From the IMG/VR virus record IMGVR_UViG_2778261162_000006, positions 1-56,751 of that record: DNA of 56,751 nt. The stretch is one strand, 5' to 3'. Source of the stretch: a virus (Duplodnaviria > Heunggongvirae > Uroviricota > Caudoviricetes). Positions 1-55,143 of this stretch are shown here, piece by piece; position 1 is the stretch's first letter; every line of letters starts with the position of its first letter. The notes beneath the pieces were generated by a model. It was not told where the DNA came from. It worked only from the letters and a program-made list of their open reading frames with translations, and made no database searches. A program made the position numbers and the translations under genes.

Positions 1-1254
1 ATGCTGGAACAAATGGGCATTGCCGCGAAGCAAGCCTCGTATAAATTAGCGCAACTCTCCAGCCGCGAAAAAAATCGCGTGCTGGAAAAAATCGCCGATG
101 AACTGGAAGCACAAAGCGAAATCATCCTCAACGCTAACGCCCAGGATGTTGCTGACGCGCGTGCCAATGGCCTTGGCGAAGCGATGCTTGACCGTCTGGC
201 ACTGACGCCCGCACGGCTGAAAGGCATTGCCGATGATGTGCGCCAGGTGTGTAACCTCGCCGATCCGGTGGGGCAGGTAATCGATGGCAGCGTACTGGAC
301 AGCGGCCTGCGTCTTGAGCGTCGTCGCGTACCGCTGGGGGTTATTGGCGTGATTTATGAAGCGCGCCCGAACGTGACGGTTGATGTCGCTTCGCTGTGCC
401 TGAAAACCGGTAATGCGGTGATCCTGCGCGGTGGCAAAGAAACGTGTCGCACTAACGCTGCAACGGTGGCGGTGATTCAGGACGCCCTGAAATCCTGCGG
501 CTTACCGGCGGGTGCCGTGCAGGCGATTGATAATCCTGACCGTGCGCTGGTCAGTGAAATGCTGCGTATGGATAAATACATCGACATGCTGATCCCGCGT
601 GGTGGCGCTGGTTTGCATAAACTGTGCCGTGAACAGTCGACAATCCCGGTGATCACAGGTGGTATAGGCGTATGCCATATTTACGTTGATGAAAGTGTAG
701 AGATCGCTGAAGCATTAAAAGTGATCGTCAACGCGAAAACTCAGCGTCCGAGCACATGTAATACGGTTGAAACGTTGCTGGTGAATAAAAACATCGCCGA
801 TAGCTTCCTGCCCGCATTAAGCAAACAAATGGCGGAAAGCGGCGTGACATTACACGCAGATGCAGCTGCACTGGCGCAGTTGCAGGCAGGCCCTGCGAAG
901 GTGGTTGCTGTTAAAGCCGAAGAGTATGACGATGAGTTTCTGTCATTAGATTTGAACGTCAAAATCGTCAGCGATCTTGACGATGCCATCGCCCATATTC
1001 GTGAACACGGCACACAACACTCCGATGCGATCCTGACCCGCGATATGCGCAACGCCCAGCGTTTTGTTAACGAAGTGGATTCGTCCGCTGTTTACGTTAA
1101 CGCCTCTACGCGTTTTACCGACGGCGGCCAGTTTGGTCTGGGTGCGGAAGTGGCGGTAAGCACACAAAAACTCCACGCGCGTGGCCCAATGGGGCTGGAA
1201 GCACTGACCACTTACAAGTGGATCGGCATTGGTGATTACACCATTCGTGCGTAA
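1..1254 (+). CDS. proA: gamma-glutamyl phosphate reductase, full length 417 aa
   Basis: Translation recognised as E. coli ProA over its whole length; ATG at 1, stop at 1252-1254. Confidence 0.95.
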
Positions 1255-1368
1255 ATAAAACCGGGTGATGCAAAAGTAGCCATTTGATTCACAAGGCCAT
1301 TGACGCATCGCCCGGTTAGTTTTAACCTTGTCCACCGTGATTCACGTTCGTGAACATGTCCTTTCAGG

Positions 1369-1444
1369 GCCGATATAGCTCAGTTGGTAGAGCAGCGCAT
1401 TCGTAATGCGAAGGTCGTAGGTTCGACTCCTATTATCGGCACCA
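1369..1444 (+). tRNA. thrW: tRNA-Thr (anticodon CGU)
   Basis: 76-nt sequence GCCGATATAGCTCAGTTGGTAGAGCAGCGCATTCGTAATGCGAAGGTCGTAGGTTCGACTCCTATTATCGGCACCA with GGTTCGA T-loop and 3' CCA; anticodon CGT by position. Confidence 0.9.
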
Positions 1445-1446
1445 TT
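1399..1446 (+). repeat. attL core: 48-bp tRNA 3' segment repeated at 42647..42694
   Basis: ATTCGTAATGCG...CGGCACCATT read directly at both positions. Confidence 0.85.
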
Positions 1447-1458
1447 TAAATCAATAAG

Positions 1459-2622
1459 TTACACATCATTAGTACCTTCCTTATTTTTTGACTGGGACAA
1501 ATTTGGGACCGATGGGTTTAGGATCGAGTCTATTTGCCGTGCGTGTTCGGTAAGGTGATTAGGTGCAAGGTGAGCATATCGACGAACCATTTCGATAGAC
1601 TCCCAGCCTCCCATTTCCTGTAACACTGACAACGGGACTCCGGCTTGAACCAGCCAACTTGCCCAGGTGTGTCTCAAGTCGTGAAATCTGAAATCATCAA
1701 TACCAGCCCGTCTCAGCGCCGCTTTCCAGGCTGTGTTTGCGTCATACCGCATCTTCCTGACTGTTGGCGCTTTCGTTCCGTCTGGTTTGGTACAGCTTTC
1801 CTTGTACACAAATACCCAACGGTGATGATTCCCGATTTGTTTTTTCAATACGCGACATGCAGTATCATTCAGCGCAACGCCAATTGCGCGGTTTGATTTA
1901 CTCTCTTCCGGGTTTATCCATGCCACCCGGCGCTGCATATCTATTTGTTGCCATTCAAGGTTGATGATGTTCGAGCGTCTTAGGCCTGTTGCCAGTGCAA
2001 ATTCAACAACAGACTTTAATGGCTCCGGACATTCATCAATCAGCCTTTGTGCTTCATGGGGCTCCAGCCAGCGGATCCGTTTATTCTTTGGTTGAGGCAC
2101 TTTAATAATTGGTGCCTTATCCAGCATTTTCCATTCACGCTCTGCGGCTCTTAGTAGGGCCTTTATAAATGAAAGATGCGTAGCCTTCGTTGCAACGGAC
2201 GCTGGTTTTGGCGTGTATTCTGGAACAGGTTTCCCTTTTTTTCTGCATGCTTCTGCCCTGAGTTTCCAGTTTTCCTCATGACGCCGGTTCGTCATTTTCT
2301 GCATTGCTGAATAAATTTTTGATTCAGTAATGTCTCTTAGTTGCATTCCTGCGAAATGTTGAAGCCAGAATCCGATCCGGCTTTTGTCATCGTCCAGTGA
2401 TTTTTTATGTGCTTTCTCTTCAAGCCACCTGACACATGCTTCCTCGAACGTTATATCAGGTATTTCACCAAGTTTGCTGACCCGCCATGCTTCAGCCTTT
2501 AGCTTGTCATGGAGTTCTGTCGCCTGCCTTTTGTCCTTTGTTCCAAGAGACTGTTTAAATCTTTTACCGTTCGGCAATGTGAAACTGGCGTACCATATTT
2601 CACCTCTGCGGAAGAGTGACAT
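1459..2622 (-). CDS. Tyrosine-type phage integrase (Rac IntR-like)
   Basis: 387 aa; C-terminal HDLRHTWAS...RRYAH catalytic motifs; N-terminus [14 protein letters not shown] recalled from Rac-type integrases; adjacent to tRNA. Confidence 0.9.
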
Positions 2623-3516: not shown

Positions 3517-4043
3517 TTGCGTAACTCCGATAACTCGTTAAAGCGTTCCATAAACATCCCGTAGGCATGGCCCGGTGCCAGTGGAATCACGTTGAACATC
3601 TCTGTTGCCGGGATACCTTCCAGTACAGGCCAGAAAGAGCCATCATCAAGCCCGAGATCGCGGCGTTCGGTTGCCAGCATGATGAGATCGGCATATTTCA
3701 CGGGCGTACTCATAACTGGGGGTAACCCGTATTTCTCACGGATTACGGCGTCTATTTTTTCTTCCATTTGTTTATAGTCAGGAAGAAGGCGTTTCAGTGG
3801 TGCGGGAATGTCCTGGCAATACGCTTCTGTTGCATCATGCATTAACGCTTCAAAAGCAAATTCCTGCGGCACCAACTGGCTGCAAAGAACCGCATGTTGG
3901 GCGACGCTGTAGAAGTGCGAAAGATGACCGGCAAAGCGACAGATATTTGAAAGGGAAACCGCGATATCGTTAATATCGATGTCGTCTTTATTTATCCTGT
4001 CATAATAAAAATGCTTCCCGGAAAAAGTTTTAATAAATGACAT
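3507..4043 (-). CDS. HD-domain phosphohydrolase (YfdR-like 5'-deoxynucleotidase)
   Basis: HxxxxxxHD-like motifs (HFYSVAQHA...HDATEAY); start placed at internal Met MSFIKTFSGKH. Confidence 0.75.
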   Translation of the reverse strand: MSFIKTFSGKHFYYDRINKDDIDINDIAVSLSNICRFAGHLSHFYSVAQHAVLCSQLVPQEFAFEALMHDATEAYCQDIPAPLKRLLPDYKQMEEKIDAVIREKYGLPPVMSTPVKYADLIMLATERRDLGLDDGSFWPVLEGIPATEMFNVIPLAPGHAYGMFMERFNELSELRKCA

Positions 4044-4170
4044 TTTGTTCTCCACGTATATGCGCTGCACCGCGCTGAATTCTGGTAAAAAGAATCCCTC
4101 ACCATCCGGCGATTATTGAGTAAATTACGTTTCCATAAATGCCCCCGCAGGGGCATTTGCAGTAATGAAA

Positions 4171-4995
4171 TCAGGCGGTGAAAGTACCAATAAAGGTTTC
4201 TACTTTGCTGTCCTTGAATTTCTCAACAAGCAGATCACGAAATTCGTTAGCCATTTCTTCCTGCACCGCCTCCAGCTGAATAATGCGCAGAACCAGTACA
4301 GGACGATCGCCAGTGATAATACTGAGGCGTAATTTAAACGGACGTTCTTTCAGACCTTCAAACGGAACGCATTTAAATTCAAATGCCACTGGCATAATGT
4401 CTTTGGTCTTCGCTTCGACAGACTCCATCAGGGAGCGTTTGCCGCTGAAGTCATTATCTTCAAAATCAGCGGTCTGGTTTGCTTCAATCGTGATTTTACG
4501 GACAGCCGCAGCCGCTTTTGTTGCCTGAATAGCGTCACCATTAGCATCAAAGCCCACAAGATAGTCGGCCCAGTCTTCAATCCATTCTGCCAGTGACTTC
4601 TGGGAGTTACGCTCGCCGTTAACAGACAACAGAGCAGAGAACGGTGCTGTCTTTTTCAGTTTGAGTGTGGCGGTGTTATCTGCGTGACCTGGTTCATCAA
4701 TAGTACCCAGGTTAAGCACACTGACGGCACGCATATTATCAGCATCGATAAAGCAGCGGGTGCCTTCATCTGCAAGATCTTTAGAATAACGGGTAAAGTC
4801 ATCGATGCTGGCAGTGGAAAGCGCACCACGGAAACGGAAGCGATTTAAATTAAATTTTTCCAGATCATGAATGCGGAAATTCTCAGGCAATGCCACAGCA
4901 TCGGCACCAATCTTACTGATAATTTCATTAACACCCTGAGCAGAAATAAGGGCATGGATTTGATTAATTGCGGTTGCGTCTAAGTTCTGAGACAT
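4171..4995 (-). CDS. DUF2303 family protein (YfdQ-like)
   Basis: 274 aa, colinear with the yfdP/Q/R-like block of CPS-53-type prophages; recollection-based. Confidence 0.65.
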
Positions 4996-5060: not shown

Positions 5061-5423
5061 TTAACGACCTGCTGCGCGGAGTTTTCCGTCAGGTTCACCG
5101 GCAAGAGTCAGTAACTGTCCCTGGTCTTCCTGCAGAATAGTCAGGCGACCACCGCGATTGACATACATCGGCGTTTCGGTGGTGTCTTCTTCGGAAATTT
5201 TCCCGCGGTTAGTCGGGCGAACATATGAGAGTTTGTGTTTGATTTTCACACGGTTCTCATCAAATGGTTCGATTTCCAGGTTGAGTGAGACCTTACCTTT
5301 GGTTTTCGTGTTCATCACACCGGAAGCGACTTCACTGAGAACTGCGCCGATTTTGGTTTCAAATACGCCGCCGTCCAGCTCCCCGATAAATGCCTGCACA
5401 TCAGTACTGCGTTCGCTAGCCAT
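5061..5423 (-). CDS. YfdP-like hypothetical protein (120 aa)
   Basis: Start at internal ATG (5423) preceded by GAGGAG; the longer 226-aa reading extends into a GC-rich structured region with implausible composition. Confidence 0.65.
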   Translation of the reverse strand: MASERSTDVQAFIGELDGGVFETKIGAVLSEVASGVMNTKTKGKVSLNLEIEPFDENRVKIKHKLSYVRPTNRGKISEEDTTETPMYVNRGGRLTILQEDQGQLLTLAGEPDGKLRAAGR

Positions 5424-5891
5424 TTTGCTGCTCCTCATCATATCGACCCTGCAAGGCCGATTAGTTTCTCCACAAAACAGAGAAGAACACCTGCGGTGGC
5501 AGCCGCCCGGATGGATTGGGTTATGAGCCCGTCGTCCGGTGATGCTCTTCTCTGTTTTGTAAAAAGGACGGTACCAGCCGGAAGCAAGGGTACAAACTGG
5601 TACCTCCAGGACTACACACAGCATAAAGTTGTGGTGCCGGGTGCCTCCCGGTGCCTGGCGAAGGTTGCACACCAGACGGGTGGGTATCCACAGAAGGTCG
5701 ACTGTCAGCCTCAACCTTAACCCGCGTGCGCTGAGCCGCATTCACCACAACGCTAAGGATTCTCTCTGGTTAAAAATACTTAGCTGTTATGTGCCTGCTT
5801 TTAGCCACATCAGGCGAGGTGGACCTGGTTATTCCCCAACAACAAGGATTCGGTTAATCTGGTTATCCCCAACAACGCAAAAGGAAAAGAA

Positions 5892-6326
5892 ATGTCCGGT
5901 AATATCTACACGCTGTACAAATCCCACTGTGAAAATGTTGGAAAGTATCGGGGCATTGAAATCAGTGGGGTAGTGTCATCAGTCGAAATAAGCAAAGTGG
6001 AATCAAGGGCAACATTACTTACTCTTCTGGACCTTGTCTTACATGAGCACCGGAAGAAATTCGGCACTCCCTATAATCAGTTGAATGGGAAAAAGGCTCT
6101 GGTTCACCTTATTCTGATGAAGCATCACTGGATGCCAAAACAGATTAATGAGATGAAATTTGATGAACTTCTTCTTTCAATTCAGGATGAACTCACACTT
6201 GATAAAATAAGCGTAACCGCCCAGAAATTTTTAGATTATCGAGACTGGAGATCACAAATTCATCATTTTGATGATTTTGACGAAAATGAATGGGATCCTA
6301 ATTTGTCTGCACAATATCTAAAGTAA
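5892..6326 (+). CDS. Hypothetical protein (144 aa), AT-rich moron opposite to the early-left operon
   Basis: ATG with AAGGAAAAG RBS; low GC versus flanks; preceded by a 34-nt tandem repeat. Confidence 0.65.
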   Translation: MSGNIYTLYKSHCENVGKYRGIEISGVVSSVEISKVESRATLLTLLDLVLHEHRKKFGTPYNQLNGKKALVHLILMKHHWMPKQINEMKFDELLLSIQDELTLDKISVTAQKFLDYRDWRSQIHHFDDFDENEWDPNLSAQYLK

Positions 6327-6519
6327 CATCCTGTGATAAAACCGTGATTTCCTGATCCAGTTTTTTTAAGGAGTCTATTGTTTCCTGTCGATAAGACAGC
6401 ACTTCACGAAGCTGGTTTATAGCTGCCAGCTTCTTTGTCATCCACTCATAAATTTCCTCATCTGTGTAGCCAGGCGCGACGATTTTGGGTTCTGTTTTGT
6501 GCATTTCACATCTCCTCAA
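6298..6519 (-). CDS. Hypothetical protein (73 aa), first ORF downstream of OL-like operators
   Basis: ORF only; 3' end overlaps the convergent 5892..6326 gene by 29 nt; not Arg-rich like lambda N. Confidence 0.45.
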   Translation of the reverse strand: MRRCEMHKTEPKIVAPGYTDEEIYEWMTKKLAAINQLREVLSYRQETIDSLKKLDQEITVLSQDVTLDIVQTN

Positions 6520-6564
6520 GTTATCAGTTACTTGTTGATGGGGACCAGATTGTTAAAGAGCTAA

Positions 6565-6586
6565 GCGTCCTGTAGGGCGCTTTTTT
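6565..6586 (+). terminator. Rho-independent terminator (plus-strand orientation)
   Basis: GCGTCC-TGTA-GGGCGC hairpin followed by TTTTTT. Confidence 0.55.
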
Positions 6587-6665
6587 GTTGCTAACGAATC
6601 ATCCTGGACTTCATATGCCCCAGGCGGCTACTTCGTGGGCGTCCTGCCTGTTCGTTGTTTCGCTT

Positions 6666-13007: not shown

Positions 13008-13883
13008 TTAAGCCGGGGATGTTTCAGATTGAAGTGTTTTTTTCTTGGGCTCGTTCTTAGATGATTTTGTTTTCTTTTGACGATTGAGTTTTTTCTCTTT
13101 GCGTCTGTCAATATAATCGTCCCACCAATCAGGTTTTACTGTTGGGACGATTCTGCAAATATCAGCAATTGCAACAACAATGTTGCTCGATTGCACTCCA
13201 TCGACGTGCTCTGCCAGTGAGGGAGGAACTTGTTGGTTCATTGGATCGAGGATAAAATCCACACCCTTTATACGGGCATGTTTAGCGGCAGGAACGAAAT
13301 CAGCATCGCCAGCAATCAGGACGATCACATCAACTAGTTTCTCATGAGCAAGGATAGTTATATCCATACCAAGCTTAATATCGACGGCTTTTTGTTTATA
13401 TTCGTAGTAGAAATCGTCGTTAGTTAACTCAGACCATTGAATTTCATTACGTAATAGTTTCTTAAGAGTATGTTCTTTTATTTGCCAGTTACCGACGTTT
13501 GAAAGAATACCCATACGAAGTGCCGTTTTACGATTCTTCCTTAGCTCCTCATGAAGCTTGTTTCGTAAAACATTCGGAGCATGTGTCTTGAAGTTTTTAG
13601 TTGATGGGGTTTTGTTGTCTCCATCAGGCAAAGGATACTTAATCTGTTTATCAAGCGGCGGGCAGTCGTAATAGTAAATACGGTAAAGCTCAAGTGGTTC
13701 ACGGTCAGCGTGAGCACCATGTGGAACCTCTACATGAAATTTAACAATTCGCCAGATTATTTTAACAAGTTGTTGGCTGTCTAACTCATGCCCAGGGAAA
13801 TGTTTTCGTAGAAAGTAATCAATCCGACGGATGAAGTAGCCGCCGTCAATCAAGACTGCTGTTTTCTTCATTGAAAAACTCAC
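13008..13883 (-). CDS. NYN/PIN-like domain protein with Lys-rich C-terminal tail
   Basis: VIVLIAGDADFVPAAKHARIKG acidic motif typical of NYN/LabA-like nucleases; opposite orientation to flanking late genes. Confidence 0.65.
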   Translation of the reverse strand: MSFSMKKTAVLIDGGYFIRRIDYFLRKHFPGHELDSQQLVKIIWRIVKFHVEVPHGAHADREPLELYRIYYYDCPPLDKQIKYPLPDGDNKTPSTKNFKTHAPNVLRNKLHEELRKNRKTALRMGILSNVGNWQIKEHTLKKLLRNEIQWSELTNDDFYYEYKQKAVDIKLGMDITILAHEKLVDVIVLIAGDADFVPAAKHARIKGVDFILDPMNQQVPPSLAEHVDGVQSSNIVVAIADICRIVPTVKPDWWDDYIDRRKEKKLNRQKKTKSSKNEPKKKTLQSETSPA

Positions 13884-14625: not shown

Positions 14626-15678
14626 ATGAAAAATACTGTAAAAATAAACAGTGTTGATTTAATCAACGCTGATTGCCTGCATTTTATTCAGTCCCTGCCT
14701 GATGATTCCATTGACCTGATTGTTACCGATCCGCCGTACTTCAAGGTGAAACCCAACGGCTGGGACAATCAGTGGAAAGGGGACGAAGATTACCTTAAGT
14801 GGCTGGACCACTGTCTGGCCCAGTTCTGGCGGGTGTTAAAACCTGCCGGAAGCCTTTACCTGTTCTGTGGGCATCGCCTGGCATCTGATATTGAGATCAT
14901 GATGCGTGAACGTTTCAACGTGCTTAACCATATCATCTGGGCGAAGCCGTCCGGACGTTGGAATGGGTGTAATAAAGAAAGTCTGCGCGCATATTTTCCT
15001 GCCACAGAGCGCGTTCTGTTTGCTGAACATTACCAGGGGCCATATCGCGGCAAAAGTGACGGCTATGCGGCAAAAGAAAGGGAACTCAAACAGCACATAA
15101 TGGCACCGCTGATATCGTATTTCAGGGATGCTCGTGCCGAACTGGGTATAACGGCAAAACAAATTGCCGAAGCCACAGGTAAGAAAAATATGGTTTCCCA
15201 CTGGTTTGGTGCCAGTCAGTGGCAGTTGCCGAATGAGGCTGACTATCGGAAGTTACAGGCACTGTTTTCCCGTATAGCGGCAGAGAAGTTTCAGGAACAA
15301 CAACTGGAACAACCACACCACCAGCTGGTGGCATCTTATGATTCACTGAATCGCAAATATTCTGAATTGCTGGATGAGTTTAAATCTCTCCGGCGCTATT
15401 TCTCCGTATCAGTCTCCGTGCCTTATACCGATGTCTGGACGCATAAGCCCGTTCAGTTCTACCCGGGTAAACATCCGTGCGAGAAACCGGCGGATATGCT
15501 CCGGCAAATAATCAATGCCAGTAGTCGACCTGGTGATCTGGTTGCTGATTTCTTTATGGGATCCGGTTCCACAATAAAAGCAGCAATGGCGCTGGGGCGT
15601 CGGGCGTTAGGTGTTGAACTTGAGTCAGAGCGGTTTAATCAGACGGTGAAAGAGGTAAGTGAACTGGTGGGGAAATAA
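14626..15678 (+). CDS. DNA methyltransferase, beta-class amino-MTase (likely N6-adenine)
   Basis: Motif IV DPPY (TDPPYF) near N-terminus and motif I FFMGSGST near C-terminus. Confidence 0.85.
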   Translation: MKNTVKINSVDLINADCLHFIQSLPDDSIDLIVTDPPYFKVKPNGWDNQWKGDEDYLKWLDHCLAQFWRVLKPAGSLYLFCGHRLASDIEIMMRERFNVLNHIIWAKPSGRWNGCNKESLRAYFPATERVLFAEHYQGPYRGKSDGYAAKERELKQHIMAPLISYFRDARAELGITAKQIAEATGKKNMVSHWFGASQWQLPNEADYRKLQALFSRIAAEKFQEQQLEQPHHQLVASYDSLNRKYSELLDEFKSLRRYFSVSVSVPYTDVWTHKPVQFYPGKHPCEKPADMLRQIINASSRPGDLVADFFMGSGSTIKAAMALGRRALGVELESERFNQTVKEVSELVGK

Positions 15679-15754
15679 TTCTGGTGGCCACGTTGCGTGG
15701 CCTTTTTATTTCCAACACAGCACCCGCAAATATCGCGAGGTGAGAGATGACGAA

Positions 15755-16081
15755 ATGCCTCATAACCCAAATACCTGGCTGGACTTGGTCCAGAGCTGGT
15801 GGCGTGGAGACACACCGCTGGGTGCAGTGATTATGTCGATCGTTATGGCTGGTTTGCGCATCGCCTATTTTGGCGGTGGTGGTGGCTGGAAGCGAAAAAC
15901 GCTCGAAATTCTACTCTGTGGCGCTCTGACGCTGACTTTTGCATCCGCTCTTGAGTATGTCGGATGGCCTAAATCACTTTCTGTTGCCATTGGTGGTGGG
16001 GTGGGGCTGATCGGTGTCGATGCTATTCGTGGGGCTGCAATGCGAGTAATCGGTAACAAATTTGGTGGCTCTAAGGAGTAA
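15755..16081 (+). CDS. Holin
   Basis: ~108 aa from internal ATG; hydrophobic TM segments; directly upstream of endolysin. Confidence 0.7.
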   Translation: MPHNPNTWLDLVQSWWRGDTPLGAVIMSIVMAGLRIAYFGGGGGWKRKTLEILLCGALTLTFASALEYVGWPKSLSVAIGGGVGLIGVDAIRGAAMRVIGNKFGGSKE

Positions 16082-16084
16082 TTT

Positions 16085-16561
16085 ATGCAGGTACTAAATT
16101 CCCAGCGTAAAGCTTTCCTTGATATGGTGGCTTGGTCAGAAGGAACGGATAACGGACGACAACCGACACGTAACCACGGTTATGACGTTATTGTCGGTGG
16201 TGAACTCTTCACTGATTACTCCGATCACCCTCGCAAACTTGTCACGCTAAACCCGAAACTCAAGTCAACAGCCGCCGGACGTTACCAGCTTCTTTCACGC
16301 TGGTGGGATGCTTACCGTAAACAGCTTGGCCTGAAAGATTTTTCTCCAGAAAGCCAGGACGCTGTAGCTCTGCAGCAGATTAAAGAGCGTGGCGCTTTAC
16401 CGATGATTGACCGTGGCAATATTCGTCAGGCAATCGACCGTTGCAGCAATATTTGGGCTTCATTGCCCGGTGCTGGCTACGGTCAGTATGAACACAAGAT
16501 CGATAGTCTGATTGCCAAATTCAAAGAAGCTGGCGGGGTGGTTAATGAAACTTCGCTATAA
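16085..16561 (+). CDS. Endolysin, lambda R-like lytic transglycosylase
   Basis: Near-identity over most of its length to recalled lambda R sequence (QRKAFLDM...AWSEGTDNGRQ...YDVIVGGELFTDYSDHPRK). Confidence 0.9.
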   Translation: MQVLNSQRKAFLDMVAWSEGTDNGRQPTRNHGYDVIVGGELFTDYSDHPRKLVTLNPKLKSTAAGRYQLLSRWWDAYRKQLGLKDFSPESQDAVALQQIKERGALPMIDRGNIRQAIDRCSNIWASLPGAGYGQYEHKIDSLIAKFKEAGGVVNETSL

Positions 16562-16937
16562 GCTGGTTATTTCTGCTTTCCTCCTGACTTTATTCGGTTC
16601 TCTCGTCTGGTCAGCTAACCACTACCACAGCAAATACCAGCGCGAAAAGAAACGTGCTGATGAGGCTGTACAAAATGCCGAATCGGCAACCGCTATTACC
16701 AATAACGTCCTGCAATCACTGCAAATCGTCAATACAGTTCTGGAGGCTAACCAGCATGCAAAACAGCAGATCGCACTGGAGTCACAGAGAACCCAGGCTG
16801 ATATCAAAGTGGCTGTTGCGGATGATGATTGTGCTGTACGCCCTGTGCCTGCTGCCGCTGCTGACCGGTTGCGGAAGTACGCGAACAGTTTACGTGAGCA
16901 TTCCGAAGACTCCACTACCAGTCAGCTTGACTTCTGA
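16545..16937 (+). CDS. Rz-like i-spanin
   Basis: N-terminal TM helix then coiled-coil-like periplasmic domain; overlaps endolysin 3' end. Confidence 0.7.
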   Translation: MKLRYKLVISAFLLTLFGSLVWSANHYHSKYQREKKRADEAVQNAESATAITNNVLQSLQIVNTVLEANQHAKQQIALESQRTQADIKVAVADDDCAVRPVPAAAADRLRKYANSLREHSEDSTTSQLDF

Positions 16938-17070
16938 TACACCTGTACCGTTTATACCCAACCCACTGACGTATGGTGCAAGTCTTGATTTGAATGTAAG
17001 TTTGTTATCCGCGTTGGCTCAATGTAATAGGGATAAGTCAGATATCAGAATCATTGATAATCAAAATTGA
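16822..17070 (+). CDS. Rz1-like o-spanin lipoprotein
   Basis: Alternate frame within and extending beyond Rz; lipobox LLTGC; Pro-rich mature part. Confidence 0.7.
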   Translation: MMIVLYALCLLPLLTGCGSTRTVYVSIPKTPLPVSLTSDTPVPFIPNPLTYGASLDLNVSLLSALAQCNRDKSDIRIIDNQN

Positions 17071-17274
17071 TGTATATTTTTATCGTCATGTAGATAACGA
17101 ACAAGGTATTCCTCTGATACGTATTCGTTGAATACAGGTCATGGGTAGGCATTGCAATATCGCTTCGAAATTATCTGTGATAATGCTCTTAATTTTGAAT
17201 GTATGTATTTGGGAAAAGAGATAAAGTAATAGTCTAATTAATGGAGATATCCACAAAACACAAAAGGGACTATT

Positions 17275-17781
17275 ATGAGACCAGATCAATTTTTCTATCC
17301 AGATACTTTTACCTTTAATTCATCCACCTATTATGGTCAACGTGACTCATCTAAAGGCCGATTGTATATTCCTATTGAAAGTGACTTATGCCCATTTAAT
17401 ATCGGCGATATCATTGTGCAAAAAATGGTCGACAGGGAAAGACTATTTGAAGTGCTTGATTACGAGGTGCAAATTAGTCTCGAGGTTGGTTGCCCTGGCT
17501 ACTCACATTTGGCGGTATTGATAGTGAAGGCATTGGATGTAAAAGAGAAGCCGAAGCAGATTACGACCCATTTGACGTTTAACGGTGCTATTAATGCTGG
17601 TGGTGATTTTCAAGCCGGTAATGATAATTCGATCACAAAGAATATAACCATTCAACAACTACATGATGCTATAGAGCATTGCAATGATCCAGAGGTTAAA
17701 AGCCTTTGGCAAAAGCTATTGGAAAATCCGACGTTTGCTTCAATTGCTTCAATATTGGCAAAAAGTGCTTTAGGACAGTAA
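17275..17781 (+). CDS. Hypothetical protein (168 aa), AT-rich moron between lysis and packaging genes
   Basis: ORF in AT-rich segment 17040..17800; no recognisable motifs. Confidence 0.55.
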   Translation: MRPDQFFYPDTFTFNSSTYYGQRDSSKGRLYIPIESDLCPFNIGDIIVQKMVDRERLFEVLDYEVQISLEVGCPGYSHLAVLIVKALDVKEKPKQITTHLTFNGAINAGGDFQAGNDNSITKNITIQQLHDAIEHCNDPEVKSLWQKLLENPTFASIASILAKSALGQ

Positions 17782-17838
17782 TTCATCAAGCCCCATTCAA
17801 TATGGGGTTTTTATGCTTATTACAAAGAGTTTTCTTCA

Positions 17839-18189
17839 ATGCCACCACGAATCCCAAAATCCTGCCGCGTTCGCGGCTGCCGCCATACCACTACTGACCC
17901 GTCAGGCTACTGCGAAAGCCACAAAAGCGAAGGCTGGAAGCAATACAAGCCAGGACAATCCCGTCATCAGCGCGGCTACGGTTCGAAATGGGATGCTATC
18001 CGTGAACGTGTACTGAAACGTGACAAAGGTTTATGTCAGTTATGTCTGCGTGCCGGTGTGGTGCGTGAAGCGAAAACCGTTGACCACATCATCCCTAAAG
18101 CGCATGGCGGCACTGATGCCGACTGTAATCTGCAGAGTCTGTGCTGGCCGTGTCATAAGGCGAAGACGGCCCGTGAACGGTTGAAGTGA
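17839..18189 (+). CDS. HNH endonuclease
   Basis: Cys pairs and DHIIPKAHGG...CHKAK motif; immediately upstream of terminase. Confidence 0.85.
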   Translation: MPPRIPKSCRVRGCRHTTTDPSGYCESHKSEGWKQYKPGQSRHQRGYGSKWDAIRERVLKRDKGLCQLCLRAGVVREAKTVDHIIPKAHGGTDADCNLQSLCWPCHKAKTARERLK

Positions 18190-18314
18190 TAATGATTCTC
18201 AACTTCCTGAGGGGAGGGGCGGGTCAAATCCCTGCGGCCTGACGTCTTCCGGACTGCCCGCCCCATCGTTTTTTTATACCCGCGAAAAATGAAATTTAAC
18301 CAGGAGTGCCGCAT

Positions 18315-18809
18315 ATGGCTGGAACGGCGGGGCGTTCCGGGCGTCGCCCCAAGCCAACGGCGCGCAAGGCGCTGGCCGGAAACCCCGGCAAGCGAGCCCT
18401 GAATAAAGATGAACCTGTTTTTACGCCCATCAAAGGTGTTGAGCCACCGGAGTGGTTCGCAGAAGAAGATCTCCCTCTCGCCACGATCATGTGGCAACTG
18501 ACAACCAAAGAACTCTGCGGTCAGGGCCTGCTGTGCGTGACTGACCTGGCGGTACTTGAGCGGTGGTGCGTGGCCTATGAGTTCTGGCGACGTGCCGTGA
18601 AAAATATTGCCAGACAGGGCAACACCATCACCGGTGCAATGGGCGGTATGGTCAAAAATCCTGAGCTGACCGCCAAAAAAGAACAGGAGTCCGAGATGAG
18701 CAGTACGGGGGCAATGCTCGGACTCGACCCCAGCAGCCGCCAGCGTCTGATTGGCCTGGCGGGGCAGAAGAAAGCCACTAACCCGTTTCTGAAAATTATC
18801 GAATCATGA
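18315..18809 (+). CDS. Terminase small subunit
   Basis: Position upstream of the large terminase; ATG after CAGGAG. Confidence 0.7.
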
Positions 18810-20539
18810 GCCGGAAATCTTACCCCAACGTAAATGCTGCCAATCAGTATGCCCGGGATGTCGTTCGCGGAAAGATTGTGGCCTGCCAGTTTGTGATTCA
18901 GGCCTGCCAGCGCCATCTTGATGACCTGATGGCGGAAAAAAGTAAGTCGTTTCGTTACCGCTTCGACAAGGACCTGGCTGAACGGGCCGCGAAATTTATT
19001 CAGCTGTTGCCGCACACCAAGGGGGAGTGGGCATTCAAACGGATGCCCATCACGCTGGAGCCGTGGCAGCTATTTGTGATCTGCTGTGCGTTTGGCTGGG
19101 TCAATAAAGGCACCCGGTTGCGCCGCTTCCGGGAGGTGTATACCGAAATTCCCCGTAAGAACGGCAAATCGGCAATCTCTGCCGGTGTTGCCCTGTATTG
19201 TTTTGCCTGTGATAACGAGTTTGGCGCGGAAGTGTATTCCGGTGCCACGACAGAGAAACAGGCATGGGAAGTCTTTCGTCCGGCACGATTGATGTGTAAA
19301 CGCACACCCATGCTGACGGAAGCGTTCGGGATTGAGGTTAACGCCTCAAACATGAACCGTCCGGAGGATGGTGCGCGGTTTGAACCGCTGATCGGTAACC
19401 CCGGTGATGGTTCATCACCCCACTGTGCCGTGGTGGATGAATATCACGAGCACGCCACCGATGCGCTTTATACCACGATGCTTACCGGGATGGGGGCGCG
19501 ACGTCAGCCACTGATGTGGGCCATTACCACCGCCGGGTACAACATTGAGGGGCCGTGCTACGACAAGCGGCGGGAAGTCATCGAGATGCTCAACGGCTCG
19601 GTGCCTAACGATGAACTGTTCGGGATCATCTATACCGTTGACGAAGGCGATGACTGGACCGACCCGCAGGTGCTGGAAAAAGCTAACCCGAATATTGGCG
19701 TGTCGGTTTATCGCGAATTTTTGTTAAGTCAGCAGCAGCGTGCGAAAAATAACGCCCGTCTGGCAAACGTCTTTAAAACAAAACACCTCAATATCTGGGT
19801 GTCGGCGCGTTCGGCGTATTTCAACCTGGTGAGCTGGCAGAGCTGCGAGGATAAATCACTGACCCTTGAGCAGTTCGAGGGGCAGCCGTGCATTCTGGCC
19901 TTTGACCTGGCGCGTAAACTAGATATGAACAGCATGGCGCGACTTTATACCCGCGAGATTGACGGTAAAACGCATTACTACAGTGTGGCCCCGCGTTTCT
20001 GGGTACCGTATGACACGGTGTACAGCGTCGAGAAAAATGAAGATCGACGGACAGCCGAACGCTTTCAGAAATGGGTGGAAATGGGCGTTCTGACCGTTAC
20101 CGATGGTGCGGAGGTGGATTATCGCTACATCCTCGAGGAGGCCAAAGCGGCGAACAAAATCAGCCCGGTCAGTGAGTCACCCATCGACCCTTTCGGGGCG
20201 ACCGGGTTGTCACATGACCTTGCTGATGAAGACCTGAACCCCATCACTATCATTCAGAACTACACCAACATGTCCGACCCGATGAAAGAGCTGGAAGCGG
20301 CAATTGAATCGGGGCGCTTTCATCATGATGGCAATCCCATCATGACCTGGTGTATCGGCAACGTGGTCGGCAAAACCATTCCGGGTAACGATGATGTGGT
20401 GAAGCCCGTCAAAGAGCAGGCGGAAAACAAAATCGATGGTGCAGTTGCGCTGATTATGGCGGTTGGCAGAGCCATGCTGTACGAGAAAGAAGACACGCTG
20501 TCTGACCACATTGAGTCCTATGGGATCCGCTCGCTTTAA
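18806..20539 (+). CDS. Terminase large subunit
   Basis: 577 aa; ATPase and nuclease segments; ATGA overlap with small subunit. Confidence 0.85.
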
Positions 20540-28276: not shown

Positions 28277-30104
28277 ATTTGAGCTTAAGGCGTTGATCAC
28301 CGGTATCGACAGGCTTTCTCCCGCGCTGTCGAAAATGCAAAAGAAAATCCGGGGATTTAAACGCCAGGCGGAAGAAGCGTCACAGGGTGGGCTGGCGCTT
28401 GGTGGCGGACTGGCAGCGGGTCTGACGCTTTCCCTGAAATCTTATGCCGATCAGGAAAACGCCGCCACCGGGCTGAAAGTCGCCATGATGGATGCGAACG
28501 GCGAGGTTGGAAAGAGCTTTCAGGACATCAATAAACTGGCTATTGGCCTGGGTAACCAGCTACCCGGTACAACGGCTGATTTCCAGAACATGATGCAGAT
28601 GCTGGTGCGTCAGGGGATCCCGGCAGAAAACATTCTGGGTGGTGTGGGTAAAGCGACAGCTTATCTTGCGGTACAACTGAAAAAAACACCGGAAGCGGCT
28701 GCTGAGTTTGCCGCAAAGATGCAGGATGCTACCGGAACGGCGTCAGAAGACATGATGGGGCTGTTCGACACTATCCAGAAGGCGTTTTATCTGGGCGTTG
28801 ACGATACCAACATGTTGTCCTTCTTCACTAAAACCAGTTCTGTTCTGAAGATGGTGAACAAGGACGGTCTTCAGGCTGCACAGAGCCTTGCCCCCATCAG
28901 CGTCATGATGGATCAGATGGGGATGAACGGGGAGTCGGCAGGTAATGCCCTGCGAAAAGTTATCCAGTCCGGATTAAGCGTTAAGAAAATCAGGGACGTC
29001 AATAAAGTCATGGCCCGCCAGAGACTCGGGGTACAGCTCGATTTTACTGACGGCAAAGGAAGTTTTGGCGGTCTTGATAACATGTTCAGGCAACTGGCAA
29101 AGCTGCGAAAACTGACCGACGTTAAGCGAACAGGTGTACTTAAGGCAATATTTGGTGATGATGCCGAAACCCTTCAGGTGGTCAATGCACTAATCGATAA
29201 AGGAAAGGATGGCTACGATCAGATCCAGCAGAAGATGAATAAACAGGCCAGCCTGAATAAACGTGTTCAGGCACAGCTTGGTACGCTGTCCAACCTGTGG
29301 GAGGCAATGACGGGGACCGCAACTAACGGCCTTGCGGCTATTGGCGGCGCATTTTCTGGTGACGCCAAAAATATCACGCAATGGCTGGGGGAGTTGGGGG
29401 AAAAATTCACGAAGTTTGCGGATGAAAATCCCCGGGTTATTCGCGGCGTCGTCGGGCTTGCTGCCGGTCTTGCGATTCTGAAACTGGGATTGATGGGCGT
29501 GGGCAGTGCCATCAGTATCGTCAGCAGGATCATGTCGATGACGCCGATTGGCATGATTGCGACGGCGATTGCCTTGGCTGCGGGATTAATTATCACTAAC
29601 TGGGATGTTGTTGGACCTTATTTCAAGAAGCTCTGGGAAACCATTGGTCCTTATTTTGAGGCTGGCTGGGAACTTCTGAAGAAGGTTTTTGCCTGGTCGC
29701 CGCTGGGGATGGTAATCAATAACTGGGGACCGGTTGTTAAGTGGTTTCAGGATATGTGGGACAAGCTGAAGCCAATTATTGAGTGGTTTACCGACAGTTC
29801 CGGTGACACGGTCGATGCCATTAACTCGGCGCAGTGGGGCGCGGGTGCTTATGATGCTTATGGGACGGGAATACCGGCGCGGGGATACACACCTTATCCG
29901 GCGGTAGATCCGGCTCAGTCAAACAACGCCTCCGATGCTACAGGCCCGAATCCCTTCATGATTAACAAAGCTTCTGCGCCAAAAGTTGACGGTGAGATCA
30001 AGGTCTCTTTTGTGAATTCGCCTCCGGGTATGCGGGTTATGGAAACGCGATCCAGCGGTTTTGATATAAATCACGATGTTGGCTATACGCATATTGGCAG
30101 ATGA
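28269..30104 (+). CDS. Tail tape measure protein
   Basis: 611 aa; Ala/Gly-rich helical and hydrophobic segments. Confidence 0.8.
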   Translation: MAEFELKALITGIDRLSPALSKMQKKIRGFKRQAEEASQGGLALGGGLAAGLTLSLKSYADQENAATGLKVAMMDANGEVGKSFQDINKLAIGLGNQLPGTTADFQNMMQMLVRQGIPAENILGGVGKATAYLAVQLKKTPEAAAEFAAKMQDATGTASEDMMGLFDTIQKAFYLGVDDTNMLSFFTKTSSVLKMVNKDGLQAAQSLAPISVMMDQMGMNGESAGNALRKVIQSGLSVKKIRDVNKVMARQRLGVQLDFTDGKGSFGGLDNMFRQLAKLRKLTDVKRTGVLKAIFGDDAETLQVVNALIDKGKDGYDQIQQKMNKQASLNKRVQAQLGTLSNLWEAMTGTATNGLAAIGGAFSGDAKNITQWLGELGEKFTKFADENPRVIRGVVGLAAGLAILKLGLMGVGSAISIVSRIMSMTPIGMIATAIALAAGLIITNWDVVGPYFKKLWETIGPYFEAGWELLKKVFAWSPLGMVINNWGPVVKWFQDMWDKLKPIIEWFTDSSGDTVDAINSAQWGAGAYDAYGTGIPARGYTPYPAVDPAQSNNASDATGPNPFMINKASAPKVDGEIKVSFVNSPPGMRVMETRSSGFDINHDVGYTHIGR

Positions 30105-30156
30105 CGGAACCAGATATAATTTGTCTTTAAGTTTGTTATCAACTGAAGGGAAATCT

Positions 30157-30534
30157 ATGGGTCTGTTACATGCCATTATAGGTAATGCCGGTGAAATTAA
30201 TGCATCAGATGCACAACAGGAATTAGGGGCTGTTTTAGGTGAGGGAGAAAATGTCGAACTTGCCTATAAACTCATTCGTGACCAAATTATTCTGACTAAC
30301 AGAAGGTTAATTTTTATTGATAAGCAGGGTGTCACAGGGAAAAAAGTAGAGTATCGTTCGATTCCTTATAAATCTGTGACAAACTTTTCTATTGAAACCG
30401 CCGGGCATCTTGATCTTGATGCTGAAATGAAGATATGGATTTCTGGTATTGCAGAACCGATAAAAAAACAGTTCAGTAAAGGAGCAAACATTTATAAATT
30501 GCAGGCTCATCTGGCTCAAAAAATAGCAGGGTAA
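30157..30534 (+). CDS. Bacterial PH-domain-like protein (moron in tail cluster)
   Basis: AT-rich insert; internal ATG after GAAGGGA; own terminator; sequence pattern recalled as bPH/DUF1696-like. Confidence 0.55.
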   Translation: MGLLHAIIGNAGEINASDAQQELGAVLGEGENVELAYKLIRDQIILTNRRLIFIDKQGVTGKKVEYRSIPYKSVTNFSIETAGHLDLDAEMKIWISGIAEPIKKQFSKGANIYKLQAHLAQKIAG

Positions 30535-37535: not shown

Positions 37536-38090
37536 ATGCTTATTGGCTATGTACGTGTGTCAACAAATGACCAGAACACAGATCTACAGCGTAATGCGCT
37601 GAACTGTGCAGGATGCGAGCTGATTTTTGAAGACAAGATAAGCGGTACAAAGTCCGAAAGGCCGGGACTGAAAAAACTGCTCAGGACATTATCGGCAGGT
37701 GACACTCTGGTTGTCTGGAAGCTGGATCGGCTGGGACGTAGTATGCGGCATCTGGTCATTCTGGTTGAGGAGTTGCGCGAACGTGGCGTTAATTTTCGCA
37801 GCCTGACGGATGCTATTGATACCAGCACACCGATGGGGCGTTTTTTCTTTCATGTGATGGGTGCCCTGGCTGAAATGGAACGAGAACTGATTGTTGAACG
37901 AACAAAAGCTGGACTGGAAGCTGCTCGCGCACAGGGACGAATTGGTGGACGTCGTCCCAAACTTACACCAGAACAATGGGCGCAGGCCGGGCGATTAATT
38001 GCATCAGGCGTTCCTCGCCAGAAGGTGGCTATTATCTATGATGTTGGTGTGTCAACTTTGTATAAGAGGTTTCCAGCCAGGGTTATATAA
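37536..38090 (+). CDS. Serine DNA invertase (Hin/Gin/Pin/Cin family)
   Basis: MLIGYVRVSTNDQ with catalytic Ser; resolvase domain plus C-terminal HTH; adjacent to invertible segment. Confidence 0.9.
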   Translation: MLIGYVRVSTNDQNTDLQRNALNCAGCELIFEDKISGTKSERPGLKKLLRTLSAGDTLVVWKLDRLGRSMRHLVILVEELRERGVNFRSLTDAIDTSTPMGRFFFHVMGALAEMERELIVERTKAGLEAARAQGRIGGRRPKLTPEQWAQAGRLIASGVPRQKVAIIYDVGVSTLYKRFPARVI

Positions 38091-38433
38091 AACCGCAGAC
38101 ATGTCGTATGCAGGAGGTGTCGCGGTTGGCTGGTGAACTTTTGATAGTGCGAGTATTGAATGATTTCCAGCCGTTACTGATTTTACGCATTTTTGTATGA
38201 GAGGGTTTGCACCTCCTTCCACCGATTCTCCATGACTTTACGCCACTGTCTCTAGAACTGCTATGTGCCAACAGCAGACATTCATAGCACACAGTTTTGT
38301 TAACAACTAGAAATAAGTTTAGGAATAGTCGCGATATATCTATTAAAGATACAATCATTCAAATAAATGAGACATTTTCGGCATGCTGGGAAAAGTAATT
38401 AAAAATGGTGAAAGCCAATTTTTTTTTTATTAA

Positions 38434-38970
38434 TCAACTTTTAAACCATAAGTCATCTCGATAGAGTAGACTAATTTTCGTTGCATCTTTTGATGCTAGA
38501 GTCGTACACTCTCCTTTATCAAACTCATCTAGACTCACAAATGTAAATTCGTCACCATTTTTTTCTTTCGGAAACACCATAAAGACTACTTCGAAAGTAC
38601 AATCACTATACACATTTTTTAAGAATTGCTGAAGTGCTCTATACTTTCCTATTTCACAATCAGTAAGTGTAAAGGAGGTACACCCATCTGTTGAGTGATA
38701 CTTCGCATCTAAAAGAATATAAGAGGATTCGTCAGCGTCAATAATGAAATCGGGGCGTTTCCCCCCATATGATTTCAAGTTTGCAGATAAGGTATTTATT
38801 CCTTGCTCAACATGTTCAAATTTCCACTTGGATTTTTCCAGCCATCTACTAGCATATTTCTCACCATCTTGACCAGCCGTTATAGAGTATTGTTTTCTTA
38901 ATGCGCTGCACATTTCGTCTAAATTTAACATAAATTCCATGTTCCTTTTTTTTAGTATAATTATTAACAT
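38434..38970 (-). CDS. Small PD-(D/E)xK nuclease-like protein
   Basis: AT-rich; motif RPDFIIDADESSYILLDAKYH (PD ... D-A-K, 14-residue spacing). Confidence 0.6.
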   Translation of the reverse strand: MLIIILKKRNMEFMLNLDEMCSALRKQYSITAGQDGEKYASRWLEKSKWKFEHVEQGINTLSANLKSYGGKRPDFIIDADESSYILLDAKYHSTDGCTSFTLTDCEIGKYRALQQFLKNVYSDCTFEVVFMVFPKEKNGDEFTFVSLDEFDKGECTTLASKDATKISLLYRDDLWFKS

Positions 38971-39208
38971 CGGCAGTATTTAATAATTCTTTAAAAATAA
39001 ATTTTCAGGCTCATACCAATTATATCTTCAAGCATTATTATCAAGCATATTCGAGACCTCTGCAATTCGCTCACAGCGGATCTCGCCTAGCGAGCAGGTC
39101 TGCTCAGTGCCATAATTAGTCTCATCAGCAGACTATAGTTGTGCTCAATCGGAGACATGTGGCAAACATGAGGAACATTATGTCCGTCAAAGAGTTTTCG
39201 TAGCTTAG

Positions 39209-39424
39209 GCATTTCGATGCTGGCAACGGGTCAGTGTAACGCTTACTATATCGGTCCACTTTAGTCTTAAGGGTTCAATATGGCGTTGCACCTATTGTCC
39301 GCTGACCAAGAATCTTCGGGTGATTCAACTTCTGTTGGGTCATAAGAAACTGGAAAGCACATTCCGTTATCTGGGCATTGAAGTCGATGATGCGTTAGAG
39401 ATCTCTGAATCGATTGAAGTCTAA
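39209..39424 (+). pseudogene. C-terminal remnant of a tyrosine recombinase
   Basis: Frame encodes ...RVIQLLLGHKKLESTFRYLGIEVDDALEIS* (LLGH and catalytic Tyr box) with no upstream catalytic domains or start. Confidence 0.45.
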
Positions 39425-54655: not shown

Positions 54656-54870
54656 AAAAAGTGTCAAGTTGAGCAGCTTGCCAGGTTGACACTTTACACT
54701 CTGAACGCGAAAAAGTGTCAACCTCGCTGTAAGCCCCGCCATTACTGGGTTTGTGCCAGATTTACCACGTCAAAAAGCCGAAAAAATCGCGAAAAGTGTC
54801 AAGTTGCTATGCTTAGAAATGCTAAGGTTTGATAAGGTTTTTCGCGAAAAAGTGTCAAGTGTGTCAACCG
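54656..54870. repeat. Array of AAAAGTGTCAA repeats with inverted TTGACACTT partner
   Basis: At least four direct copies at ~50-80 bp spacing and one perfect 10-bp inverted pair separated by 20 bp. Confidence 0.7.
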
Positions 54871-55143
54871 CGCCGCTTTAGAAAACTTTATGTGCAGATC
54901 GTTGGATGCATCTGTCAAAACTTGCCACCCACCAGCACCGCCAGCGGGGATTTTTGGCTACACGCGCTCTAAGTAACAGTTGCTTCAGTGCGTTACATAC
55001 GTTGGAAGTGTTATAACTCAAGTTTTTGAGACAAAGTCAGAATTGTATGAATTTGTCTATAGCCGTCTACTCAAGTTTTCTACATAATATAAGGAAATAG
55101 CATGTTGTTTAATTAATGTACGATAATTCTGAAAGAGTAACAT

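Follow-up and report, generated by a model that had tools for sequence, protein, structure and literature searches.

An AT-rich moron gene behind the spanin genes of an Escherichia coli prophage belongs to a modular family with a motif resembling RHIM in sequence

The AT-rich Gene and Its Setting

The subject of this study is a 168-amino acid (aa) open reading frame (ORF) at 17275..17781 on the plus strand, with an ATG start, within a stretch of 56,751 nucleotides (IMG/VR record IMGVR_UViG_2778261162_000006, positions 1 to 56,751; this whole stretch is called the window below). The window holds an E. coli prophage, that of an HK97-like myovirus with a P27-type terminase. A first-pass annotation had singled out an AT-rich gene at this place and had described its position as a canonical one for a moron; the term, as used by Hendrix and colleagues, denotes an additional gene cassette carried in the genome of a tailed phage. 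The 168-aa ORF is that gene. The analysis reported here was purely computational, and the genes and features around the ORF are as follows.

15659-16081: holin of the lambda S type (Pfam Phage_holin_3_1)
16085-16561: endolysin ORF, with no Pfam match; RefSeq genomes annotate glycoside hydrolase family 24
16512-16937: Rz, with Rz1 embedded
16822..17070, plus strand: Rz1, the o-spanin lipoprotein inside Rz (lipobox LLTGC in the translation; PHROG Rz-like spanin; RefSeq label LysC/Rz1); left bound of the slot
17071..17274, plus strand: AT-rich upstream region of the cassette, GC 0.32
17275..17781, plus strand: the 168-aa gene
17788..17817, plus strand: terminator-like hairpin (9-bp stem, 17788-17810) followed by a U-tract, inside the cassette
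17839..18189, plus strand: HNH endonuclease; right bound of the cargo slot
18306-18809: TerS, the P27-family small terminase (Terminase_4)
18806-20539: TerL

The gene does lie between the lysis cassette and the HNH/terminase genes, as had been claimed, with Rz and Rz1 on its left and HNH, TerS and TerL on its right. The markedly lower GC content relative to its flanks is likewise borne out: the gene has a GC of 0.389 and a GC at third codon positions (GC3) of 0.349, compared with a GC of 0.484-0.581 and a GC3 of 0.45-0.65 for the neighboring genes for the methyltransferase (MTase), holin, endolysin, Rz, HNH, TerS and TerL. The 204-nt intergenic stretch upstream is poorer still (GC 0.324), and of all 507-nt segments of the 56.7-kb window only 6.7% are equally GC-poor.

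The ORF is a real gene and not a chance ORF, because its homologues keep the frame intact, a profile search yields 80 representatives, and near-identical copies show more synonymous than non-synonymous changes. No frame disruptions occur among 22 homologues at 49-99% identity, and the codon variants among near-identical copies comprise 8 distinct synonymous and 4 non-synonymous ones, with the C-terminal 70 residues holding none. A hypothetical protein of Escherichia phage vB_EcoM-689R6 has the identical sequence (100%). A 67-aa antisense ORF (17086-17289) has no PHROG match and was taken as spurious.

In the profile libraries the protein has a single full-length match, PHROG 5789 (E 1.2e-79; residues 1-168 against profile positions 1-167 of 168), a family annotated as of unknown function. 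It has no match in Pfam or NCBIfam, and none to the PADLOC-DB v2.0.0 (2023) models at E <= 10. A sequence search of the PDB with the protein and an Rfam scan of 16900-17900 returned nothing.

A Swappable Cassette in a Variable Slot

Among 5426 complete E. coli genomes the gene is present in only 29, and it is chromosomal every time. A 2.3-kb query spanning the slot gave a partial match in 2827 of these genomes and a match with at least 80% coverage in only 27. In sister E. coli prophages the flanks (endolysin/Rz on the left, HNH/TerS on the right) are 87-95% identical to those of the window, and between them lies unrelated cargo, namely an Iss/Bor lipoprotein, a GrlR-family gene, a DUF2441 gene or two minus-strand hypotheticals. 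The right edge of homology with these prophages is sharp and lies at 17825-17839; the left edge falls at 17036, 16931 or 16536, depending on the Rz type.

The cassette itself consists of the AT-rich leader, the coding sequence and the hairpin. A Shine-Dalgarno-like AAGGGA can be read at 17264-17269 upstream of the gene, and a possible extended -10-like TGTGATAAT in the leader region at 17176-17184. By pattern and energy prediction the hairpin downstream folds at -12.4 kcal/mol (z -2.68), and comparable hairpins are found 3' of the homologues in loci L008, L011 and L002. Because the slot is variable, the composition deviates, the terminator lies inside the cassette, and homologues elsewhere stand alone on the opposite strand, the assignment of a moron position is supported, and with it the view of the 168-aa gene as a real, swappable moron cassette between Rz1 and HNH.

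In its anatomy the cassette resembles the lambda-type moron Bor/Iss, which shares the slot downstream of Rz/Rz1, the exchangeability between related prophages, the deviant composition and a terminator of its own. The product is different. Bor/Iss, encoded on the opposite strand, is a lipoprotein of the outer membrane; the window protein is unrelated to it and, as read from the sequence, has neither a signal peptide nor a lipobox.

A gene directly behind Rz/Rz1 could also encode a lysis accessory or lysis-timing protein, such as an antiholin-like or spanin-associated membrane factor. The same placement recurs in at least three other lambdoid phages with different types of lysis genes (L008, with a GH19 endolysin; L009, with holin_2_1 and Phage_lysozyme; and L086), and the C-terminal helix of the protein, described below, looks membrane-active. 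However, sister prophages with the same lysis genes carry unrelated cargo instead, the gene is found in few genomes, its base composition is foreign, and a terminator of its own follows it. Homologues, moreover, are also found in other places: distant from lysis genes and on the opposite strand, in satellite-like elements that have no lysis genes next to them, and at chromosomal sites. We therefore consider a role in lysis very unlikely. The first-pass annotation had named a conserved structural or lysis accessory protein as the alternative to a moron; our results speak against this, since the gene is found in only 29 of the 5426 genomes and the phage has a separate head-completion protein.

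Some copies of the cassette vary. Seven loci (L077-L082 and L084) have cassettes that are otherwise 99% identical and show approximately 43 apparent mismatches to window positions 17071-17274 in an ungapped comparison; these probably stem from a 1-nt indel in the leader (850- versus 851-nt matches). An N-terminally truncated copy of the gene from E. coli (P0003, 118 aa), 100% identical over 70% of the length, is annotated in eight sequences, and genome H30 (NZ_CM166353.1) has the cassette twice, with the first ~100 nt of the query absent from one of the two.

Domain Architecture of the Protein and Its Family

An AlphaFold2 model of the window protein, read together with the conservation among its homologues, divides it into three parts.

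17275..17547, plus strand: N-terminal small beta-barrel (aa 1-91) of six strands, confident in the AlphaFold2 model
17572..17646, plus strand: motif region, predicted to be disordered (aa 100-124, LTFNGAINAGGDFQAGNDNSITKNI), from the predicted local distance difference test (pLDDT) and conservation
17608-17628, plus strand: motif core F112-Q-A-G-N-D-N118, a derived form of the family NIGSxSGxQVQVGNxNxQ
17647..17778, plus strand: C-terminal helical module (aa 125-168) with helices at 126-134 and 139-150 and a tail helix at 152-165 (TFASIASILAKSAL), from AlphaFold2

The pLDDT falls below 50 over aa 92-122, and despite this low value residues Phe-102, Gln-113, Ala-114, Gly-115 and Asn-118 are invariant among the homologues.

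An exhaustive profile search gave 80 cluster representatives of the family. Many of them have only the C-terminal ~72 aa in common, behind N-termini that differ (a zinc ribbon, a winged helix-turn-helix-like domain and others). The consensus of this shared module is NIGSxSGxQVQVGNxNxQxxNITIxELVEKVAxSxDxEAKSLLKxLLENxTVASIxGAGASALLGLL, and in most members the C-terminal 17-mer is the most hydrophobic segment of the protein. The protein thus belongs to an unnamed modular family with an N-terminal beta-barrel of ~90 aa, a conserved disordered stretch, two short helices and a hydrophobic or amphipathic C-terminal helix rich in Gly, Ala and Ser. Full-text literature searches found no description of it.

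The fold of the barrel raises the question of a virion or assembly protein, such as a head-tail stopper or neck-like protein, or of a PilZ-type receptor for cyclic di-GMP. Foldseek searches with the model found nothing in the PDB at E <= 0.001 and no significant match in BFVD. The first-pass annotation had proposed profile and structure searches; with these results in hand, PHROG 5789 is their only full-length match. When the barrel profile was compared by HHalign with two Phage_HCP proteins, that of L011 and that of this phage, the probability stayed below 1%, and the phage already has both a Phage_connect_1 and a Phage_HCP protein. The c-di-GMP-binding motifs of PilZ domains are RxxxR and (D/N)xSxxG; neither is present in the alignment of the domain, and the window protein has no Pfam PilZ or HCP match. 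Moreover, the gene is not part of the morphogenesis module, and sister prophages do without it. Both the idea of a domesticated stopper protein and that of a PilZ receptor were rejected on the negative Foldseek (PDB, BFVD) and HHalign (Phage_HCP) results, and a role of this kind appears extremely improbable.

The family profile, over positions ~4-62, also matches Big_9/cadherin-like RTX giant adhesins: 13 repeats of P0025 (4708 aa) at E 1e-27 and 5 repeats of P0096 (1793 aa) at E 8e-4. These matches could be a sum of weak similarities or a real relationship of the barrel.

A Motif That Resembles RHIM at the Family Level

Once the family is aligned, a conserved stretch emerges that the searches with the single protein had left unseen. 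The claim that the gene has no recognisable motif accordingly stands for Pfam, NCBIfam and PADLOC and fails for the aligned family. The canonical core of the stretch, (V/I)Q(V/I)G-N/D-x-N, agrees with that of RHIM. Against the Pfam RHIM model (PF12721) one relative is above threshold, namely P0098 (...AIQIGDNNVQ...), with 24.9 bits against a gathering score of 20 (E 1.4e-5), and five more (P0067, P0056, P0094, P0091 and P0088) reach 10-16 bits, below the threshold, at the homologous position. We assign the RHIM-like character at the level of the family because these relatives score on the Pfam model and the window protein does not. By sequence the motif appears RHIM-like, and amyloid formation would be a prediction from that resemblance.

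RHIM, the fungal PP motif and the bacterial BASS3 motif have a central G-phi-Q-phi-G in common (Dyrka et al., bioRxiv 10.1101/2020.01.06.895854). Measured against this core, the window sequence G110-D-F-Q-A-G115 has one residue extra, and its second phi position is taken by Ala. The form seen in most relatives is phi-Q-phi-G-N-x-N, in which the upstream Gly is shifted by 1-3 residues, and the exact core is found in few of them (P0043 and P0044, GIQ(I/V)G). The likeness to the RHIMs of RIPK1 and RIPK3, to PP and to BASS3 thus lies in the canonical core and in a stretch that is conserved yet disordered in the model of the monomer.

There are differences from both bacterial and animal precedents. 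BASS3 was described from filamentous Actinobacteria and Cyanobacteria, at the C-terminal end of Bell domains and the N-terminal end of NLRs (bioRxiv 10.1101/2020.01.06.895854), whereas the family described here is found mostly in unicellular Gammaproteobacteria, their phages and satellites, and its motif is internal. The window protein departs from RHIM in its F-Q-A-G core. In one relative a weak match to Pfam HET-S (N-terminal small S) was seen at E 0.009, below the cut-off.

Distribution, Genomic Contexts, and Partner Genes

Searching GTDB species genomes with a degenerate DNA pattern built on the C-terminal module returned 48 matches, each of which a hidden Markov model confirmed as a family member. 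Most are in Gammaproteobacteria (Psychrobacter, Marinomonas, Pseudomonas, Proteus, Photorhabdus, Kluyvera, Enterobacter, Pluralibacter, Shewanella and Vibrio). The barrel of the window protein recurs in approximately 30 of the 48, and many of these have a length of exactly 168 aa.

Besides the place behind the spanin genes, two further settings recur on mobile elements. One is found in Serratia prophages, where the homologue is a single gene running opposite to its neighbors, which encode an SLT-domain injection-type protein on one side and a primase on the other. The second is found in satellite-like elements (Klebsiella, Kluyvera, Proteus, Pluralibacter, Enterobacter and Winslowiella), where a canonical member, again a lone gene on the opposite strand, separates a capsid-protease-portal module from a DUF927/D5-type primase. 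A Pfam census of the neighbors of family members found a KAP NTPase at 7 loci and HEPN_AbiV at 1 locus. The accessory position in satellites and the KAP and HEPN_AbiV neighbors are typical of accessory or defense genes. The census of the 7 KAP neighbors did not name the loci, and KAP identity was confirmed individually only for the neighbor in L023. This locus is one of seven (L023, L024, L036, L039, L041, L043 and L044, from Psychrobacter and a Flavobacteriaceae metagenome-assembled genome) in which members with another N-terminus are convergent to an ORF of 441-456 aa at a distance of 3-24 nt.

At some loci the motif is common to adjacent gene products. In L017 an AbiTii-domain protein (217 aa, 753-1406, plus strand) ends in the family motif ...NIGSITGHQVQLGNNNTQ (...NIGSITGHQVQLGNNNTQHKKTAKR), and a family member with a zinc ribbon, motif and tail (1431-1889, plus strand) follows 25 nt downstream. 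This protein is the only case seen of the motif without the C-terminal helices, and the link to AbiTii is a single contig of 3.2 kb. The layout is like that of AbiT (AbiTi/AbiTii), a two-gene abortive-infection (Abi) system of Lactococcus, with the AbiTii protein directly upstream of the small family member; unlike AbiT, the window has no AbiTii gene, and the PADLOC models give no real match, only three stray weak matches being returned for 65 relatives.

Tandem pairs of different family members form a second arrangement (L052, 3649-4935; L070, 3798-5149; L106; L110; L112; and L115). In these a paralogue of ~250 aa, with another N-terminus that has no Pfam match and with a degenerate motif and tail, lies directly upstream of a canonical barrel-type member. 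The pairs recur in Enterobacterales-type loci and may represent a two-component variant. A looser case is L068, where the paralogue (1726-2346) lies 1.5 kb upstream of the member (3891-4397). No second copy of the motif was found in loci L001-L011.

A Possible Membrane-acting Effector

The closest parallel in E. coli is Bab/Agp, an Abi system in which amyloid signaling leads to a membrane-targeting effector (bioRxiv 10.1101/2024.11.07.622273). Like Bab, which carries the BASS11 motif, the window protein is a small protein of an E. coli mobile element that combines a short conserved motif rich in Gly, Asn and Gln with a helical part for membrane targeting that includes a hydrophobic helix, predicted in the case of the window protein. 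As in Bab/Agp, the motif is common to adjacent gene products in some relatives (L017). The architectures differ. Bab has an N-terminal hydrophobic helix, the helical "Babybell" domain and a C-terminal motif, whereas the window protein has a beta-barrel, an internal motif, short helices and a C-terminal hydrophobic helix; Bab also needs Agp, a partner of 1094 aa, and the window has no partner. A pattern made from the BASS11 residues cited in the Bab/Agp paper gave one chance match, in a phage structural gene. In concept the protein also resembles the fungal pore-forming effectors HET-S and HELLP, in which an amyloid-type switch motif stands beside a membrane-inserting helix that is masked until assembly. 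The topology is mirrored, with the HeLo domain and membrane helix of HET-S at the N-terminus and the prion motif at the C-terminus, and there is no relationship in sequence or fold. The Bell/HeLo form of effector is not matched either, given a barrel at the N-terminus and the hydrophobic helix at the C-terminus. The window gene is a member of PHROG 5789 and by its anatomy a textbook moron; it is not a member of RHIM (Pfam), Bell/HeLo, PilZ, Phage_HCP or PADLOC. Its likeness to amyloid-signaling effectors would thus be one of logic rather than of architecture.

From the cassette and slot, the family architecture, the motif, the partner genes, the tail, the genomic contexts and the Bab/Agp precedent, we favor, tentatively and with slightly less than even confidence, the reading that the 168-aa protein is a prophage-borne abortive-infection or exclusion effector that assembles via its motif and acts on the membrane. 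The proposed logic is the one demonstrated by experiment for Bab/Agp in E. coli and HET-S in fungi, with the topology mirrored and the parts usually joined in one polypeptide. We infer expression in the lysogen, sensing, assembly, membrane action and a defense phenotype, in the following sequence. The protein would be made in the lysogen and, by read-through, also late in lytic growth. The beta-barrel may hold it soluble and inactive, or may sense a component of the infecting phage. Once triggered, the motif would drive cooperative self-assembly, in some relatives with paralogous or AbiTii-type partners. Assembly could then gather or free the C-terminal helices for insertion into the inner membrane and damage to it, and the outcome would be abortive infection or the exclusion of competing phages.

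Several results weigh against an effector of this kind, and the case is weakest for the window protein. In its clade the motif and the tail are both degraded: the motif core is F-Q-A-G and not (I/V)-Q-(I/V)-G, with no Pfam RHIM match at E <= 1, and the tail, which contains a Lys, is weakly hydrophobic (Eisenberg <H> of 0.38, compared with 0.65-0.70 in canonical members). The window protein is, in these two respects, a derived family member. Known BASS/FASS proteins carry their motif at a terminus, whereas here it lies inside the chain (aa 100-124 of 168). A strict DNA pattern for the motif, run over metagenomes, gave 40 matches, all of them family members with the full module, and therefore the motif is not seen as a portable element in other architectures. 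A search of the PDB with the module profile found no RIPK1 or RIPK3 chain and no other meaningful match. The negative PADLOC search bears on the same point, as do the many relatives in ordinary chromosomal neighborhoods. No motif-bearing, AbiTii-like or tandem-partner-like ORF exists in the window. As for expression, a consensus scan of 17071-17274 on the plus strand found no sigma-70 site with 9/12 matches or more, and promoter scans at four homologue loci gave no clear promoter either; the homologues that are opposite in strand to all of their neighbors must have promoters of their own.

The degraded features suggest another possibility, that the phage protein is a decoy or anti-defense factor whose diverged FQAG motif and weakened tail co-assemble with, and poison, canonical members of satellites or hosts. 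Compared with the canonical clade, the window clade (E. coli, Serratia and lambdoid phages) shows systematic differences that fall precisely in the motif core and the tail, the N-terminal barrel is common to both clades, and canonical members are present in satellite-like elements of the same host order. Against a decoy, the gene lies in the late region or is a lone moron on the opposite strand, and not among the early genes, and the motif core is invariant within the clade, which would fit a functional effector as well. We judge a decoy to be quite improbable.

A broader alternative is that the gene encodes a lysogenic-conversion or accessory protein with some other function, for instance a host-directed regulator, a toxin-like protein or a stress factor, in which the RHIM-like stretch is a conserved linker or interaction peptide and the tail an ordinary amphipathic helix. 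Such a role is consistent with the absence of a functional annotation in Pfam, NCBIfam, PHROG and PADLOC, with the lack of a significant fold match in Foldseek, with the weakness of both motif and tail in the window clade, and with the many relatives in housekeeping neighborhoods; the slot itself also holds cargo unrelated to defense, such as Iss/Bor and the GrlR-family gene. It leaves unexplained, however, why motif, helices and tail are kept as a unit behind many N-termini, why an AbiTii protein that has the motif alone adjoins a family member, and why the family recurs in accessory positions of phage satellites. We hold it to be somewhat less probable than the abortive-infection or exclusion effector, and doubtful, although it is the strongest of its rivals.

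Extended to the whole family, the effector reading would describe single-polypeptide cell-death effectors, composed of a sensor, a RHIM-like switch and a membrane helix, which prophages and satellite-like elements with capsid genes carry in unicellular Gammaproteobacteria, E. coli among them. Some would be paired or joined to a motif-bearing AbiTii-type sensor, and the lambdoid clade, with its FQAG core and weakened tail, would represent a diverged effector or else a decoy poisoning the canonical form. This larger picture is unlikely to hold as stated. If it did, RHIM/BASS3-type amyloid signaling would extend from animals, fungi and filamentous bacteria to enterobacterial conflict of phage against phage. 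Were the phage copy a decoy, it would be a bacterial-virus counterpart of the herpesvirus RHIM inhibitors. If the favored effector reading is right, the gene would mark an undescribed anti-phage (or anti-defense) module of only 168 aa that is easy to test and that joins the post-lysis moron slot of lambdoid phages, the accessory slot of capsid-encoding satellite-like elements and RHIM-type amyloid switches, until now separate subjects. It would be a second and architecturally inverted example, beside Bab/Agp, of amyloid-type signaling in E. coli immunity, and a minimal system for how a short motif gates a membrane-inserting helix. Should none of this apply, the gene would be an ordinary moron whose product falls in a well delimited, conserved family (PHROG 5789 and ~80 cluster representatives) that deserves a domain definition.

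Other Features of the Window and of a Related Phage Record

A tRNA-Thr(CGT) lies at 1369-1444, and the 387-aa ORF beside it on the minus strand (1459-2622) is presumably the integrase. Upstream of the lysis region, on the opposite strand, a low-GC ORF (13008-13883, minus strand, GC ~0.39) encodes an NYN domain and looks like another cargo gene. Downstream of the head genes, a low-GC ORF at 30076-30534 (plus strand) encodes a bacterial PH domain (bPH_1, E 6e-48). Two further ORFs, at 5892-6326 (plus strand) and 38434-38970 (minus strand), are AT-rich islands and have no Pfam match. Low-GC stretches extend over 5850-6600, 38000-39300 and 54750-56751, and the AT-rich island at 38-39 kb may mark the end of the prophage.

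In the GenBank record of vB_EcoM-689R6 (L001, ON470584.1), the ORF in the endolysin position (locus 5086-5562) is labeled "terminase small subunit"; over the part compared it is identical to window 16085-16561. The same record annotates only a 291-nt "DNA adenine methylase" (locus 4329-4619), compared with a 350-aa N6/N4 methylase ORF in the window (14626-15678) that overlaps the start of the holin gene.

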